From the sequence record MN850587.1: 64,000 nt of DNA; one strand, given 5' to 3'. The DNA comes from Escherichia phage mistaenkt. Position 1 is the stretch's first letter; the number at the start of each line of letters is the position of its first letter. Position numbers and translations under genes: made by a program. Positions 15,034-29,506 of the stretch are shown here, in pieces. The notes under the pieces were generated by a model. It was not told where the DNA came from. It did no database searches and saw only the letters and a list, made by a program, of their open reading frames with translations.

Positions 15034-15216
15034 TCAACTGTTTCCGTTATGTTTCTTTCCAGTTCCACCACAATAAGGGCAGCAACCATAACTTACCAGA
15101 CCTGTACCATCACAATCTTCACACTCTTCTGCACCGAAATAGTGTTTAGCCAGAAGGTATCCGATTACAATCAGACCACCAAATGACAGGATTAACTCTA
15201 ACCAATAACCTTGCAT
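15034..15216 (-). CDS. Small membrane protein with DnaJ-type zinc finger (60 aa)
   Basis: TM segment LELILSFGGLIVIGYLL followed by two CxxCxGxG repeats (CEDCDGTG, CPYCGGTG). Confidence 0.5.
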   Translation of the reverse strand: MQGYWLELILSFGGLIVIGYLLAKHYFGAEECEDCDGTGLVSYGCCPYCGGTGKKHNGNS

Positions 15217-15533
15217 AACTTCTCTCCAACATGTTTGTACAGAATGAAACTACGGTCATGAACAATACTTGAGGCAACTGCAAAGTTCTCTTCCAGTATT
15301 GCTTTGTTCGGATTATAGAATCCGTCTAAGAATTGGTCAAGTGCTAATTGGTGGTTTTGTGGAAGACCTTTCACATAAATCTTCATAGAAAGTGTGGCAA
15401 CCACTTCACCTTGTAGTTCATCTCGTGCTGCTACCAAGATTTGGTTAATGAACTTGTGACCATCTTCAGGACGTTTAATATCATCCCAATTCTCTTCCAA
15501 GACCATGTTGATATTCATCTGTTTGATTTTCAT
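15198..15533 (-). CDS. Hypothetical protein (111 aa)
   Basis: ORF directly downstream of the Nampt-like gene. Confidence 0.6.
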   Translation of the reverse strand: MKIKQMNINMVLEENWDDIKRPEDGHKFINQILVAARDELQGEVVATLSMKIYVKGLPQNHQLALDQFLDGFYNPNKAILEENFAVASSIVHDRSFILYKHVGEKLCKVIG

Positions 15534-15550
15534 AACATTCTCCAGAAATT

Positions 15551-15571
15551 AAAAAGGCTCCCGTAGGAGCC
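15551..15571 (-). terminator. Rho-independent terminator
   Basis: GGCTCC-CGTA-GGAGCC followed on the minus strand by TTTTTAATTT; downstream of the Nampt-like gene. Confidence 0.7.
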
Positions 15572-15586
15572 TCTTATAATACTTAT

Positions 15587-17413
15587 TTAAAGCTGTCTGT
15601 CAATAACATTTCGTACATCACGAAGGTTAACGTAGCCATATGGCTGAGAGTCGCAGAATACCAGCTTCAGAGCACACTGAGGGTTGTCAAGTACGCCTTC
15701 AAACTCTGCAAAGCCAAAGCCATCTACAGCTTCCAGCTTATCACCATCCCACATAGGGACTACACCACCAAAAGCAGACTTCTTCAGACCACTGTCAGTT
15801 TTAGGGTCTTTTGCCAGCATGATTTCTTCACCATCCATCTGTGCAAGAGTTGCTTTAACAGCGAATGCAAAGGTATCACGAGTCAGGTACTGGTAAGTGT
15901 ATGAACCAACACCAAAGACAACGTTAGAACTTGCAAAGCCCTTTTCAGCAAGACGGCTAAGAATCTCTTCAGCACGTTCCAGAGTGATAGAGTCACCATA
16001 GATTAAGCCAATATGTTCATCAAGGACTTTGTAACCTTTAGAGTTTACAGTGCCTCCAAAGATGTTGTACAGAGTTTTGATAGCCCCATCAATTTCTGCT
16101 GTCAGCATACGTTTAACAACAACTTTACCAGTCTTGTAAGTCTCTTTAAGGTTAACTGTATCGGCAACGTTAAAGTCTTCTGCATCAACAATTAACTCAT
16201 AACCTTCAGAGATTAGCCAAGCAGAGAAGCCATAACCCATATCTGTCATGTTACAATTCAAGATTGCATCAAGTAGATAAGTATTGTCAGGGGAAATAGT
16301 TGACATGTGTTTGTAATACATGCTCTTAGCATTTTCCCATTCAATTGCACGATAACCAGTAACAATGTGTACAGGGTCACCTGAATCTGGACGGATTACC
16401 AGTTTACCATCACGGTTCATGATTTCTTCACGGAGTTCTGGAAGAATCTCTGTAACTGTACGCCAGAAGTTGTAAGTATCGGACACAACACTTGCAATAC
16501 CAGTTGGGTAAACATCTACCAGCAGGTGCTTAAAGGTTTGAACCTCACCACGCCAGCGTTTAGCATCCAGCAAGCTATCAGACTGCATAATGTACTGTGA
16601 GTGAATGTCATCTTCTGTCAAGTCTTTCATATTCCATGAAATGTTTGCACACATCACAGAGTGTTCAGTTGCTGGAACAGAGTTACCAATATCACTTACA
16701 GTCATGAACTGACCATATGCACGTTTAGCAGTATACACAGCAGGGAAGCTGTCAGTGCCTTTAAAGCTGGTCAGGTGACCTACAGCGTTGAAAGCATCAT
16801 CTGTAAAGCCAGACATACCACGCATTGCAAAGTCGTGACACTGCCAAGGAAGATGGAAGTCATTGTCACAGGTCTTGTCAGCCCAAGATTTACAGATACG
16901 TTTGTAATGCAGTGCAATAGTTGCAATGGTACAAGCTTTCCAGATTTCAGCAGAGAAAGCATCTTCCAGATAACCAGCTACCCAATGGAAACCTTCAACG
17001 GTATTTTTGAAGATAATCATTGGAACACGCATAGGAACGATTGTACCTTCTTCAACAGAGTACACTGCAACTGGCAGATAACCTAAGTCGTGAAGTTCTT
17101 CCCAATGATGACGCTTGATAGCATCTGCACCAAGAACACCATTCATGATTTCCAAGATTTCATCAACAGCTTCTTTCTTATCACGTTCGAAGAAAGTTGC
17201 ATTCCAATGGTCTACTAAGTAATCTTTAACGAAACGTTGAATACCGAAAGCAACTACACCGTCAGTCTCCAAAGGAGTATTAAACCACTTATCGCCACGG
17301 GGTGTAAGGTTCAGCATCAGATACTGAGTTGCACTCGGATACTGGTAGGTGTGACCAGCTTTATAAGCATCTGCATTAAGACCTGCTGGAACTGCATAGA
17401 TTGATTTAGACAT
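15587..17413 (-). CDS. nadV: Nicotinamide phosphoribosyltransferase family protein (Nampt/NadV-like, 608 aa)
   Basis: N-terminal DAYKAGHTYQYP and C-terminal GLIYGDSI, VVFGVGSY, TRDTFAFAVK, KDPKTDSGLKKS blocks match the Nampt family as recalled; longer than typical Nampt. Confidence 0.8.
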   Translation of the reverse strand: MSKSIYAVPAGLNADAYKAGHTYQYPSATQYLMLNLTPRGDKWFNTPLETDGVVAFGIQRFVKDYLVDHWNATFFERDKKEAVDEILEIMNGVLGADAIKRHHWEELHDLGYLPVAVYSVEEGTIVPMRVPMIIFKNTVEGFHWVAGYLEDAFSAEIWKACTIATIALHYKRICKSWADKTCDNDFHLPWQCHDFAMRGMSGFTDDAFNAVGHLTSFKGTDSFPAVYTAKRAYGQFMTVSDIGNSVPATEHSVMCANISWNMKDLTEDDIHSQYIMQSDSLLDAKRWRGEVQTFKHLLVDVYPTGIASVVSDTYNFWRTVTEILPELREEIMNRDGKLVIRPDSGDPVHIVTGYRAIEWENAKSMYYKHMSTISPDNTYLLDAILNCNMTDMGYGFSAWLISEGYELIVDAEDFNVADTVNLKETYKTGKVVVKRMLTAEIDGAIKTLYNIFGGTVNSKGYKVLDEHIGLIYGDSITLERAEEILSRLAEKGFASSNVVFGVGSYTYQYLTRDTFAFAVKATLAQMDGEEIMLAKDPKTDSGLKKSAFGGVVPMWDGDKLEAVDGFGFAEFEGVLDNPQCALKLVFCDSQPYGYVNLRDVRNVIDRQL

Positions 17414-17457
17414 GTTTTAATCTCTCTCAAAGTGGGGCTTAAAAGCCCCTGATTAAT

Positions 17458-18339
17458 TTAATAGATGTTTGCTACAGTTACTTGACCGAAATGAGTCAGA
17501 CCACGGTCTTTCGCACTACCTAAAGAGTCTGTAGTGTAGATGTGTGAAATACCATTGTCAAGCAGGTTTTCAACACCTTTTGAGAAAATACCATGTGTTA
17601 CATACAGTTCAACTTTAGATGCTCCAGCTTCACGAAGATACTTGGCTGCTTCAATGAAGGTACGACCACCATCACAGATATCATCAATGATGAGTACAGT
17701 TTTACCAGTAAGGTCTACATCATCAAGCAGACGCATACCTGTAATCTCACCAGTCTTCAGGTCTCGAACCTTAGCCATTGTTACGTAAGGCTTATCAACC
17801 TCTTTAGCCGTCTCTGCAATCTTCTTAGCTGCTCCTGCATCTGGTGCTACCAGAAAATCAATGGTAGGCTCACTGGCATAGTGTGCTGCAACATCTTTTT
17901 GATGGATGTTCTGGAAGCATTTGAACAGGTTGTCTGCAACGTCACTGTGAGCATCCAGAGCACATACTGCATCAAAATCCATTGCATTGACCAGATTAGC
18001 AAACACTTTCAGTGCTGCTGCATCACCTTTAAACATGTGACGGTCATATCGAGCATTTGGCAGGTAAGCAAAGATGACAGTTTTCATAGTTGCTTTCTGA
18101 GGAATCATTTTGTCGATTGCCTCTTTTGCCAGAGCTAAAGCAAACAGAGTGTCTTTGTCGTAACCTTGTACAGTGAAGATGACGTTCTCAATCTGGGAAG
18201 CATTCTCTTCAGCATAGGTTACTAATTCTTCAGAGAAGTTACCACCAATTTCCCCAGACGGGAACTGGATAATGTTGAACTCTTCTTGGTGAGCACCTTT
18301 TTTCTGTGAGTGCAACAGTACGCTAATAATAGTTTTCAT
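17458..18339 (-). CDS. prs: Ribose-phosphate pyrophosphokinase family protein (Prs-like, 293 aa)
   Basis: PRPP-binding loop VLIIDDICDGGRT and THGIFS block, FPSGEI N-terminal block, VAPDAGA. Confidence 0.8.
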   Translation of the reverse strand: MKTIISVLLHSQKKGAHQEEFNIIQFPSGEIGGNFSEELVTYAEENASQIENVIFTVQGYDKDTLFALALAKEAIDKMIPQKATMKTVIFAYLPNARYDRHMFKGDAAALKVFANLVNAMDFDAVCALDAHSDVADNLFKCFQNIHQKDVAAHYASEPTIDFLVAPDAGAAKKIAETAKEVDKPYVTMAKVRDLKTGEITGMRLLDDVDLTGKTVLIIDDICDGGRTFIEAAKYLREAGASKVELYVTHGIFSKGVENLLDNGISHIYTTDSLGSAKDRGLTHFGQVTVANIY

Positions 18340-18351
18340 CTTTAATCTCTC

Positions 18352-18630
18352 TCAATCAAAAGTTACAAAGGTCACAGCCATAGCTGTTTTACATTTTTGT
18401 GGATTCACAATGTGATAGATGACTGAACAGTTTCCTGTTCCATCTGGTACTGGTTTTGTCCAAGTGCGTTCAACATTTGGTTCACCAAGTTCTTTGTAGA
18501 ATCCGTTTGTGTGATGGTCAATCATCTCAAGTGCTAATGAGTCTGGTACATGACCACGAATCATATACATCTCACAGCCATTGCCAGCATCACTTACAAG
18601 GTCTTTTATTTCCCAATCTGCTCTAGCCAC
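18352..18630 (-). CDS. Hypothetical protein (92 aa)
   Basis: ORF directly upstream of the Prs-like gene. Confidence 0.55.
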   Translation of the reverse strand: MARADWEIKDLVSDAGNGCEMYMIRGHVPDSLALEMIDHHTNGFYKELGEPNVERTWTKPVPDGTGNCSVIYHIVNPQKCKTAMAVTFVTFD

Positions 18631-19138
18631 GATAAGTTGCCTTATAAACAGTTTCGAATTTCAACAGGAGAGATATTGCCAGAACTGCATATTCTCTGTC
18701 AAGCATTGGTGGCATATTATTTCTTAGATACTCTTTTTGTTCTTCATAAGTCATCTTTGGAGTGTCTAAAATCTTCTCACCTTGCTTCTGGTTATCAATC
18801 TGAGTCTGGATAAACCAGTTTGCACAGTGGTGCTCACCACCTTTTGTAACTGGCTTGTGGTGGCCTAATGTAAAGGCTTGCTTGCCAGAATAACGACAAA
18901 GCTTGTTAAGAGTTGCAATAGTGTTCTTGACAACACAGTATTCATAGAGGTTATCAATTGTATAGTGAGGGTAGTATGCAAAGAGGGAACTGTCACGAAA
19001 CTTCCCACGATTCCAAAGAACCATGTGATTAGAGTTAGAAGGGTCATACTGATGGGAATCAATGAACTCTTGACGTTCATCAAAGTCAAGTCTTAGAACA
19101 GACATTGCAGCGGCACGTTTCAAGTTAGGTAAGTACAT
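18623..19138 (-). CDS. Hypothetical protein with HNH-like motif (171 aa)
   Basis: GHHKPVTKGGEHHCANW resembles the HH...GG...N core of HNH nucleases; weak. Confidence 0.4.
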   Translation of the reverse strand: MYLPNLKRAAAMSVLRLDFDERQEFIDSHQYDPSNSNHMVLWNRGKFRDSSLFAYYPHYTIDNLYEYCVVKNTIATLNKLCRYSGKQAFTLGHHKPVTKGGEHHCANWFIQTQIDNQKQGEKILDTPKMTYEEQKEYLRNNMPPMLDREYAVLAISLLLKFETVYKATYRG

Positions 19139-19177: not shown

Positions 19178-19190
19178 TAATCATAACTTA

Positions 19191-19502
19191 TTACTGAAGC
19201 TCTTTCAAGACTCTTACAAAATCTTCTTGGCTTACATCCATCTTGAGAGACTCAGATGGCTTGACAAGGTTGTTTGTACATACAATCTTCTTGTGCTTTT
19301 TGTCATAAGTCAGCTTCAGTTGATGCAGTTCTTTATCAGACTCATCCTGAGTGTTGTACATCTCAACAGCTTTTTTAAATGGGGTGTATGCACCACCAAA
19401 AGCTAAAAAGCCTGTACCACAATAATGTGCATTGTGTTTGTCATACATGAACTGGCACAATGCTAAAATCTGAAGTTTACGAGTGTTATAAATCTTGCTC
19501 AT
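19191..19502 (-). CDS. Hypothetical protein (103 aa)
   Basis: ORF preceded by a terminator hairpin. Confidence 0.6.
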   Translation of the reverse strand: MSKIYNTRKLQILALCQFMYDKHNAHYCGTGFLAFGGAYTPFKKAVEMYNTQDESDKELHQLKLTYDKKHKKIVCTNNLVKPSESLKMDVSQEDFVRVLKELQ

Positions 19503-29005: not shown

Positions 29006-29506
29006 TTATTCTCTCTCGTTAAGTTTCATGATTTTATGGATTCTCTTCTCAGCATCTTCATAAGTCTCTTTGGTAAGAAACTTGATTGCTGCAATGTTTG
29101 CATTGTAGAAGAGTCGAAGCTTGGAGTCAATCCTTTTTGTCATGACGTCAAACTTATGTTGGAGGTTAGCTTCTCCGTAGACCAACCCACCTCGCGTATA
29201 ATAAGTTTGCACAATATAGAAGTCAAACTCTTTTTCACCGAAAGTTTCAATATCTTTCTTAATGTACTCAGAAGAGGTCTGGTAAACCATCCAGTCACTC
29301 TCTTTTGTCACAATCTTACGTCTGGCCTTTCCAGCTACTTTCTTCTTGGTGACATTGTTAAACTGCTTCTTACCAATGTAATACTGTCCAGTCTTTTTGC
29401 AGTACACTAAGTAAACGAAACCAAAATACTTAGCGGGGTCAATCTCCCCGCACAGTGAAATCCAATGCCCATATTCAGGGCAATTGCCAAAACCTTTAAT
29501 CTTCAT
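29006..29506 (-). CDS. GIY-YIG family endonuclease (putative homing endonuclease)
   Basis: FGFVYLVYCKKTGQYYIGKK matches the GIY...YIG motif; 166 aa; inserted between the exonuclease gene and downstream genes. Confidence 0.6.
   Translation of the reverse strand: MKIKGFGNCPEYGHWISLCGEIDPAKYFGFVYLVYCKKTGQYYIGKKQFNNVTKKKVAGKARRKIVTKESDWMVYQTSSEYIKKDIETFGEKEFDFYIVQTYYTRGGLVYGEANLQHKFDVMTKRIDSKLRLFYNANIAAIKFLTKETYEDAEKRIHKIMKLNERE

Follow-up and report, generated by a model that had tools for sequence, protein, structure and literature searches.

The two adjacent minus-strand genes at positions 15587–18339 of the Escherichia phage mistaenkt DNA (MN850587.1; the window is the whole analysed stretch of 64,000 nucleotides) very probably form a two-gene NAD+ reconstitution pathway 1 (NARP1) operon of an Ounavirinae coliphage. 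Judged by sequence, the pair is orthologous to genes 79–80 of phage Bas63 (JohannRWettstein), the founding NARP1 operon. A NARP1-type reading had been offered in a preliminary description, and it is borne out by the Bas63 orthology, by the Namat signature described below, and by the presence of the relatives SUSP2 and EcSzw-2 in published tables. The reading is correct but already known, and adds no new biology, since the pair closely copies an already characterised operon of Adps and Namat. The genes and the elements around them are as follows.

17458..18339, minus strand: adps, putative ADP-ribose pyrophosphate synthetase, 293 aa (ORF, Pfam, Bas63 gp79 orthology)
15587..17413, minus strand: namat, putative nicotinamide ADP-ribose transferase, long form of the Nampt family, 608 aa (ORF, Bas63 gp80 orthology)
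18340..18356, minus strand: translation-initiation region of adps, UUGAGAGAGAUUAAAG-AUG, which holds the TGA stop of the upstream 92-aa ORF
17434..17449, minus strand: intergenic stem-loop between adps and namat, GGGGCU-UUUA-AGCCCC in the mRNA
17414..17431, minus strand: translation-initiation region of namat, UUGAGAGAGAUUAAAAC-AUG; the identical 15-nt sequence also precedes adps
15552..15575, minus strand: intrinsic terminator closing the unit, AAGAGGCUCC-UACG-GGAGCCUUUUU

The source phage is a Felix O1-like coliphage (Ounavirinae, Suspvirus-type), whose nearest relatives, SUSP2 and EcSzw-2, share 94–96% DNA identity with the window. The NARP1 discovery tables (bioRxiv 10.1101/2024.02.11.579819) include both phages, under Adps and under "Adps-associated" Namat. 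Two co-oriented ORFs of 608 and 293 aa had been described at the locus, and both are present; in transcription order the Prs-family gene comes first and the Nampt-family gene second, on the same strand with a spacer of 44 nt. Loci are counted as NARP1 when adps and namat lie within ten genes, and a Namat relative directly adjoins the Adps relative in 78 of the 79 IMG/VR loci that encode the latter. The adps and namat genes are probably co-transcribed, as suggested by their tight packing behind two small upstream ORFs, the shared ribosome-binding region, and the single closing terminator. The 10-mer TGAGAGAGAT occurs exactly twice in the window, once ahead of each of the two start codons. The promoter scan gave 10 matches against 10.2 in shuffled sequence, and because matches are no commoner than in the shuffled sequence, no promoter is claimed.

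The hairpin GGGGCT-TAAA-AGCCCC noted earlier between the genes was found, and the 66-nt spacer fragment folds with −13.4 kcal/mol (z −2.2). On the coding strand only CUUU follows the stem, which falls short of a proper U-tract, so the hairpin does not qualify as a canonical terminator. The stem is kept with variable loops in Bas63 and in 22 of 28 close relatives. In the other 6, an HNH_3 endonuclease gene stands in place of the hairpin while both enzymes are retained; the hairpin is therefore dispensable, and its candidacy as an essential regulatory element is rejected. The terminator expected after the pair is also present, at 15575–15552 on the minus strand. Its arms can alternatively be given as AAGAGGCUCC-UACG-GGAGCCUUUU followed by a U-rich tail, the 71-nt fragment folds with −20.4 kcal/mol (z −3.0), and each of the 29 relatives examined has the element, a few of them with minor substitutions.

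Profile searches agree with the family calls made earlier for both proteins (TIGR01251, 7e-40, and phrog_619, 1.5e-98, for the Prs-family protein; PRK09198, 3.9e-140, and phrog_448, 2.6e-197, for the Nampt-family protein). Such generic models, together with the public annotations of the pair as "ribose-phosphate pyrophosphokinase" and "nicotinamide phosphoribosyltransferase", would also suit ordinary salvage, in which a true Prs supplies PRPP, a true Nampt makes NMN, and host NadD or NadR completes NAD+ independently of immunity. The scores of the first protein argue against that route. It clears the subfamily cut-off of TIGR01251 alone (136.8 bits versus 113) and falls below every Prs equivalog cut-off (104–115 bits, best 114.9, versus 296–297). 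Pfam detects PF00156 and PF14572 but not Pribosyltran_N (PF13793). A canonical ribose-phosphate diphosphokinase is thus rejected on the equivalog scores and the undetected PF13793. The protein is closer to SPbetaL1 Adps (98.6 bits, 35% identity) than to E. coli Prs (63.5 bits, 26%), and it shares 78% amino-acid identity with Bas63 gp79, both being 293 aa long. Lys190 (MAKVRD) aligns with the catalytic Lys162 of SPbetaL1 Adps (GHKQRN), the B. subtilis Prs equivalent being Lys197. Adps and E. coli Prs have in common a fold of the PRTase type, the ribose-phosphate loop (DD..G..T), and the Lys region for pyrophosphoryl transfer, whereas the flexible loop reads KVRDLKTGEITGM in mistaenkt Adps and KRRPRANVSQVM in Prs. 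Sequence identity, the profile scores, and the entry of SUSP2 and EcSzw-2 in the published Adps table place the first enzyme in the phage Adps clade of the Prs superfamily, not among canonical Prs enzymes.

The second protein shares 76% amino-acid identity with Bas63 gp80. Its best PDB match by both sequence and structure is SPbetaL1 Namat (9w5w/9w5x; E 2e-124, target-normalised TM-score 0.95), the AlphaFold2 model having a pLDDT of 91.3. At all 20 positions that contact NAD+ in the crystal structure of SPbetaL1 Namat, the residue is identical or conservatively replaced, and at all 20 it is the same as in Bas63. The Nampt-like core is kept, namely the residues that bind nicotinamide, ribose, and phosphate, among them the counterpart of Arg306. 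The conserved core residues are Asp15, Tyr17, Phe195, Arg198, Asp221, Ala248, His251, Arg341, Asp343, Gly473, Asp474, Gly503, Ser504, Thr511, Arg512, and Asp513. The type II phosphoribosyltransferase fold and the nicotinamide- and ribose-phosphate-binding residues are shared with Nampt/NadV enzymes (H. ducreyi NadV, 9KE8; Xanthomonas Nampt, 7YQO; human NAMPT). The canonical Nampts, however, use PRPP as the substrate and have no Adps partner, and those of NARP2 are paired with Nmnat. Two segments should be noted in relation to substrate selectivity.

15875..15907, minus strand: clamp-helix motif GSYTYQYLTRD, aa 503–513 (motif definition from PMC12774641, alignment)
17273..17305, minus strand: clamp loop TPRGDKWFNTP, aa 37–47, of the Bas63 type, in which Lys occupies position 3 and Trp position 4

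The aromatic residues of the clamp helix (Tyr505 and Tyr509 in mistaenkt Namat) occupy adenine-stacking positions, and in the Bas63-type clamp loop the Lys at position 3 is followed by Trp as the stacking residue (PMC12774641). The aligned helix is GSFTYQYNTRD in SPbetaL1 Namat, GAQTYQRNTRD in HdNadV, and GGALLQKVDRD in the Xanthomonas (Xcc) enzyme. The aromatics are therefore present in Namat and absent from both Nampts, where the two positions are Gln/Arg (HdNadV) and Ala/Lys (Xcc) instead of Tyr/Tyr. In human Nampt the positions are presumably Gly/Lys, again without aromatics. In the clamp loop, the stacking residue of SPbetaL1 Namat is Arg40, whereas mistaenkt has Lys42–Trp43, and Trp43 is predicted, from the model in PMC12774641, to stack on adenine. 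The putative Namat of mistaenkt thus bears the published Namat-specific sequence signature, and this aromatic clamp is a further point against ordinary salvage.

The activities of the characterised homologs bear on both readings. SPbetaL1 Adps gave no product in a PRPP-synthetase assay but converted ADPR, and its authors concluded that it is not a Prs (bioRxiv 10.1101/2024.02.11.579819). The SPbetaL1 proteins form ADPR-PP from ADPR and ATP in vitro, and then NAD+ upon addition of nicotinamide; SPbetaL1 Namat also keeps the conversion of PRPP to NMN (bioRxiv 10.1101/2024.02.11.579819), so that some ordinary salvage activity is possible. In the orthologous Bas63 operon, the effect of deletion is restricted to NAD+-depleting defence: Bas63 lacking genes 79–80 becomes sensitive to SIR2-HerA, ADPR-PP is formed only with the intact operon, and other NARP1 operons overcome type I Thoeris, DSR, and others (bioRxiv 10.1101/2024.02.11.579819). 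The chemistry in Bas63 was inferred in vivo (bioRxiv 10.1101/2024.02.11.579819), and the biochemistry rests on the approximately 35%-identical SPbetaL1 homologs because Bas63 Adps could not be purified. Taken with the scores and the clamp, these results leave ordinary salvage a very improbable account of the pair.

For the NARP1 operon, the following course is proposed by analogy. SIR2-HerA, type I Thoeris, DSR, or SEFIR would split NAD+ into ADP-ribose and nicotinamide. Adps would then pyrophosphorylate ADP-ribose at C1″ with ATP to give ADPR-PP, and Namat would exchange the pyrophosphate for nicotinamide to restore NAD+, the adenine of ADPR-PP being held by the clamp of Lys42/Trp43, Tyr505, and Tyr509. 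Phage replication could then proceed. We infer that mistaenkt Adps and Namat act as their Bas63 and SPbetaL1 counterparts do. The gene order, flanking genes, intergenic hairpin, and terminator of mistaenkt are the same as those of Bas63, though bas63_0081, a small gene downstream of namat in Bas63, is not in the window. SPbetaL1 (9W5W/9W5X; PMC12774641) likewise agrees with mistaenkt in the order of the two genes, the catalytic Lys, the catalytic core, and the clamp-helix motif; there, adps and namat abut without the spacer hairpin found in mistaenkt.

The flanking genes could in principle extend the operon. The order is rIIA, 60 aa, 111 aa, Namat, Adps, 92 aa, and 171 aa, with NrdG further upstream, and Bas63 has the same arrangement. 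The 171-aa and 92-aa ORFs lie directly before adps and overlap each other, the latter ends 12 nt before adps with no terminator between, and some other phages do have extended NARP1 operons. A flanking ORF might therefore supply a third enzyme, as in NARP2, NARP1-AP (with Adpp, a Macro-domain ADPR-1″-phosphatase), or NARP1 coupled to RyDEP, a glycosidase with a RyR domain. The small ORFs at 15198–15533 and 18352–18630, for which an accessory role had been proposed, are genuine, conserved ORFs (phrog_4262, phrog_4726), but we found no evidence of accessory function. Even at E ≤ 10, Pfam matches no Macro, RyR, or cytidylyltransferase family in the flanking ORFs, and Pfam at this threshold, PHROGs, and NCBIfam give no Macro, RyR, or Nmnat signal. 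The 92-aa and 111-aa ORFs are confined to Ounavirinae (230 and 257 phage records, respectively), whereas Adps relatives occur in 1561 records; none of 51 distant NARP1 loci has either ORF, and one close relative retains NARP1 but not the 92-aa ORF. On the negative profile searches and this lineage-limited distribution, the ORFs are rejected as accessory enzymes.

NARP1-AP and RyDEP-extended NARP1 are rejected since Pfam (E ≤ 10) matches no Macro (Adpp) or RyR (RyDEP) domain in the flanking ORFs. NARP2 is defined by an Nmnat in the same genome, a Nampt outside the Adps-associated clade, and the absence of Adps; here, Adps is present, and no Nmnat is found among the annotations of the whole SUSP2 genome. 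The "NAD synthetase" of SUSP2 (gp057), located 12 kb away, was considered as a third NAD enzyme and turned out to be a SegE-type GIY-YIG protein (PF19835, 5e-27). An extended or alternative pathway is, like ordinary salvage, very improbable. With no partner of the Macro, RyR, or Nmnat type found, the locus is a plain two-gene NARP1.

The length of Namat should also be noted. It exceeds 491–496-aa Namat and Nampt proteins by approximately 112–117 residues, of which approximately 73 lie at aa 355–442 and approximately 28 at aa 258–289, the remainder being small C-terminal differences. The extra length pointed out in the preliminary description is therefore real, but it is not a single block between IRPDSGDP and LIYGDSI, being made up mainly of two insertions.

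16547..16642, minus strand: insertion 1, aa 258–289, directly after the strand of the catalytic His (ATEH251S)
16088..16351, minus strand: insertion 2, aa 355–442, between RPDSGDP and the GAIKTLYNIFGG helix

Neither insertion is found in SPbetaL1 Namat (491 aa), and insertion 1 is also absent from 496-aa bacterial homologs. Insertion 1 is the most variable segment of Namat (15% identity to Bas63, versus 81–88% in the core) and is modelled with lower confidence (pLDDT 70–83). Insertion 2 is confidently predicted as a compact small α/β subdomain, for which no known fold was matched and no published description was found; it is the sole undescribed feature of the pair. Bas63 Namat has both insertions, so the extra length is not peculiar to mistaenkt; insertion 1 is shorter there, which accounts for the 15-aa difference between the two proteins (608 versus 593 aa). 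An 843-aa Namat homolog (P0096), considered as a natural Adps–Namat fusion, has no similarity to Adps. Its extra ~350 aa begin with Cys exactly at the junction of RPD and SGDP and have an intein-like appearance, with no Pfam Hint match.

Each insertion follows a strand with catalytic residues (His251; Arg341/Asp343), and from the barrel topology both should project from the catalytic face. The insertions, which are specific to the Ounavirinae-type lineage, could modify the behaviour of the long-form Namat. That they form an additional lid or docking subdomain altering Namat function seems unlikely. Such a subdomain might, for example, receive the labile ADPR-PP straight from Adps, control access to the active site, or allow the enzyme to escape an inhibitor made by the host; the short-form SPbetaL1 Namat does not bind stably to Adps.

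The approximately 100 additional residues of Felix O1-like Namat enzymes include the confidently folded subdomain beside the catalytic motifs. As a probable NARP1 operon, the pair indicates that mistaenkt carries an NAD+ reconstitution counter-defence of the working type. This is of use for predicting which hosts protected by SIR2, TIR (type I Thoeris), DSR, or SEFIR systems a phage can infect, and for choosing phages for therapy.

Transcription of the pair runs leftward and starts with the Prs-like gene; the elements are the following.

Elements of the gene pair
17458-18339, minus strand: adps, ORF call of 293 aa, first gene of the pair
17434-17449, minus strand: hairpin GGGGCU-UUUA-AGCCCC in the 44-nt adps-namat spacer; the fragment folds at -13.4 kcal/mol
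15587-17413, minus strand: namat, ORF call of 608 aa, second gene
15575-15552, minus strand: strong intrinsic terminator AAGAGGCUCC-UACG-GGAGCCUUUUU, downstream of namat

In profile searches, the 293-aa protein matches Pfam Pribosyltran and Pribosyl_synth, TIGR01251 (7e-40) and phrog_619 (1.5e-98), and the hits of the 608-aa protein are NAPRTase and NAMPT_N, PRK09198 (3.9e-140) and phrog_448 (2.6e-197). The preliminary description of a Nampt-like/Prs-like pair with a spacer hairpin and a terminator is accurate, judging from the ORFs, the profile matches and folding. Both proteins hit one further profile, phrog_12872 (547 positions): Adps at profile positions 36-224, and Namat, by its C-terminal part, at 373-533. 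This suggests that some phages have fused Adps-Namat proteins, or that their gene calls were merged.

Escherichia phages EcSzw-2, EcSzw_1 and SUSP2 (Ounavirinae, Suspvirus) match the 4.2-kb region at 94-96% identity, and many Felixounavirus and Mooglevirus genomes show approximately 80% identity to it. Genes 79-80 of the Felixounavirus Bas63 (JohannRWettstein, MZ501086) are the operon in which NAD+ reconstitution pathway 1 (NARP1, Adps plus Namat) was discovered (bioRxiv 10.1101/2024.02.11.579819). According to the same study, Bas63 without these genes is sensitive to SIR2-HerA, ADPR-pyrophosphate (ADPR-PP) occurs in Bas63-infected cells only with the intact operon, and the SPbetaL1 homologues form ADPR-PP from ADPR and ATP, and NAD+ from ADPR-PP and nicotinamide. 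In direct comparison, Adps of the window shares 78% identity with Bas63 gp79 at the same length and gap-free, and Namat shares 76% with gp80. The neighbourhoods also agree (rIIA, a 60-aa membrane protein, a 111-aa ORF, Namat, Adps, and 92-aa and 171-aa ORFs), with NrdG further upstream of the pair in both. The module is orthologous to the operon on which NARP1 was founded. It is also already known, since proteins of its near-identical relatives SUSP2 and EcSzw-2 are tabulated as Adps and 'Adps-associated' Namat (supplementary tables, bioRxiv 10.1101/2024.02.11.579819). The NARP1-type reading proposed beforehand is thus right.

Two features separate Namat from Nampt in the 2026 structural study of SPbetaL1 Namat (PMC12774641). 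One is the aromatic motif of the clamp helix, whose regions align as follows.

Clamp-helix region in the alignment
Window Namat: GSYTYQYLTRD
SPbetaL1 Namat: GSFTYQYNTRD
H. ducreyi NadV (Nampt): GAQTYQRNTRD
Xanthomonas Nampt: GGALLQKVDRD

The second feature is a variable clamp loop that provides an adenine-stacking residue, which is Arg, or Lys/Tyr followed by a stacking residue as in Bas63 (PMC12774641). The loop of the window protein, TPRGDKW (K42-W43), matches that of Bas63. Sixteen of the 20 NAD+-contact residues in the crystal structure are identical and the rest are conservative (R40K, S190A, A362S and F392Y); Bas63 and the window agree at 20/20. The top PDB sequence matches are the Namat structures 9W5W/9W5X (2e-124, compared with 2e-101 for NadV and 1e-38 for human Nampt). 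The same Namat entries are the top structural matches, with a target-normalised TM-score of 0.95. The choice between Nampt and Namat, which the preliminary description had proposed to make by profile, falls on Namat by clamp motif and nearest structures. That between Prs and Adps falls on Adps: the protein scores 98.6 bits against SPbetaL1 Adps and 63.5 bits against E. coli Prs, and lies far below all curated Prs equivalog thresholds. Its K190 aligns with the catalytic K162 of SPbetaL1 Adps. A Namat relative accompanies the Adps relative in 78 of the 79 IMG/VR loci encoding the latter.

The Nampt plus Nmnat pathway, NARP2, is not supported, since an annotation search found no Nmnat anywhere in the SUSP2 genome and the protein labelled 'NAD synthetase' there in RefSeq (gp057; 29006-29506 in the window, minus strand, 166 aa) has a SegE-type GIY-YIG endonuclease domain (PF19835, 5e-27). 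Gp057 is rejected as an NAD enzyme, and its misannotation could mislead NAD-pathway surveys.

NARP1 operons are also known in extended forms: NARP1-AP adds the Macro-domain phosphatase Adpp and counters aRES, and another form adds the RyR-domain glycosidase RyDEP. This module has neither extension; Pfam detects no Macro or RyR domain in the flanking ORFs, even with the threshold relaxed to E ≤ 10. Nothing connects the small ORFs at 18352-18630 (92 aa) and 15198-15533 (111 aa), suggested earlier as accessory, to the pathway. They are confined to Ounavirinae (230 and 257 records, respectively, versus 1561 for Adps relatives) and occur in 0/51 distant NARP1 loci, and one close relative keeps NARP1 without the 92-aa ORF. 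They may nevertheless be co-transcribed with NARP1, because no terminator lies from 19157 to 15575 and the 92-aa stop codon falls inside the adps ribosome-binding region. The 171-aa ORF (18623-19138, minus strand; phrog_3500) heads the putative transcription unit. It is weakly HNH-like (phrog_2214, 1.3e-4; IscB HNH region, 0.009) and, unlike sporadic homing endonucleases, is kept in all close relatives.

An identical 15-nt translation-initiation sequence, UUGAGAGAGAUUAAA, precedes adps (18340-18356, minus strand) and namat (17414-17431, minus strand), and its exact 10-mer core, TGAGAGAGAT, occurs only at these two sites in the 64-kb window. The adps copy contains the TGA stop of the upstream 92-aa ORF. 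The common sequence suggests that initiation at both genes is matched. The spacer hairpin most probably serves mRNA stability or weak attenuation. Of 28 close relatives, 22 keep its stem, as does Bas63, while the loops vary freely, and its outer G-C pair is replaced by U-A in two loci (L029 and L030), a compensatory variant. In the other six Ounavirinae relatives (loci L012, L013, L018, L020, L023 and L026; spacer region about 4377-4900), a 163-aa HNH_3 homing-endonuclease gene (PF13392, 9e-19) takes the place of the 45-nt spacer and its hairpin. The pair can thus be kept without the hairpin, and the spacer is an insertion hot spot. Promoter-like matches are no commoner than in shuffled sequence, so no promoter is claimed. 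Sigma-70-like hexamer pairs lie at both unit ends, each immediately upstream of a terminator hairpin (15576-15603, TTGACA-16-TATTAT; 19180-19208, TTGAAA-17-TATGAT; minus strand); given the same count, this arrangement may be chance.

The length of Namat should be noted. Compared with Namat and Nampt proteins of 491-496 aa, it carries two main insertions.

Insertions in Namat of the window
Insertion 1, aa 258-289: approximately 28 additional residues, immediately following the ATEH251S strand
Insertion 2, aa 355-442: approximately 73 additional residues, immediately following RPDSGDP

The extra length and the block after RPDSGDP had been recognized correctly, but not as one of two locations. 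Both insertions are present in Bas63 Namat (593 aa) and in other Enterobacterales myoviruses of approximately 85-92 kb (Yersinia, Pectobacterium and Salmonella SB18-like phages); other homologues have intermediate lengths, and neither insertion occurs in the 496-aa homologues from Klebsiella, Cronobacter and Phytobacter chromosomes.

Enterobacterial chromosomes, including Kosakonia, encode this short form and also 286-aa Adps homologues (P0066, P0072, P0081, P0092 and P0199-P0236). The aromatic clamp motif is found in all five aligned chromosomal Namat homologues, and these proteins fit the bacterial NARP1-like systems of PMC12774641. An 843-aa Namat homologue, P0096 (4982-bp Logan contig), has an insertion of approximately 350 aa that starts with Cys inside RPD|SGDP (…VVRPDCYDDKTEILTEKGW…) and resembles an intein placed within the active-site motif; P0096 shows no Adps similarity and no Pfam Hint domain at E ≤ 0.001.

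Insertions 1 and 2 are the fastest-evolving parts of Namat (15% and 48% identity to Bas63, respectively; core, 81-88%). Since each follows a strand with catalytic residues, both should lie on the catalytic face, judging from the alpha/beta-barrel topology. The structural study of SPbetaL1 Namat, in which the short form does not bind stably to Adps, makes no mention of the insertions (PMC12774641). The insertion subdomain of long-form Namat is the only undescribed feature of the module.
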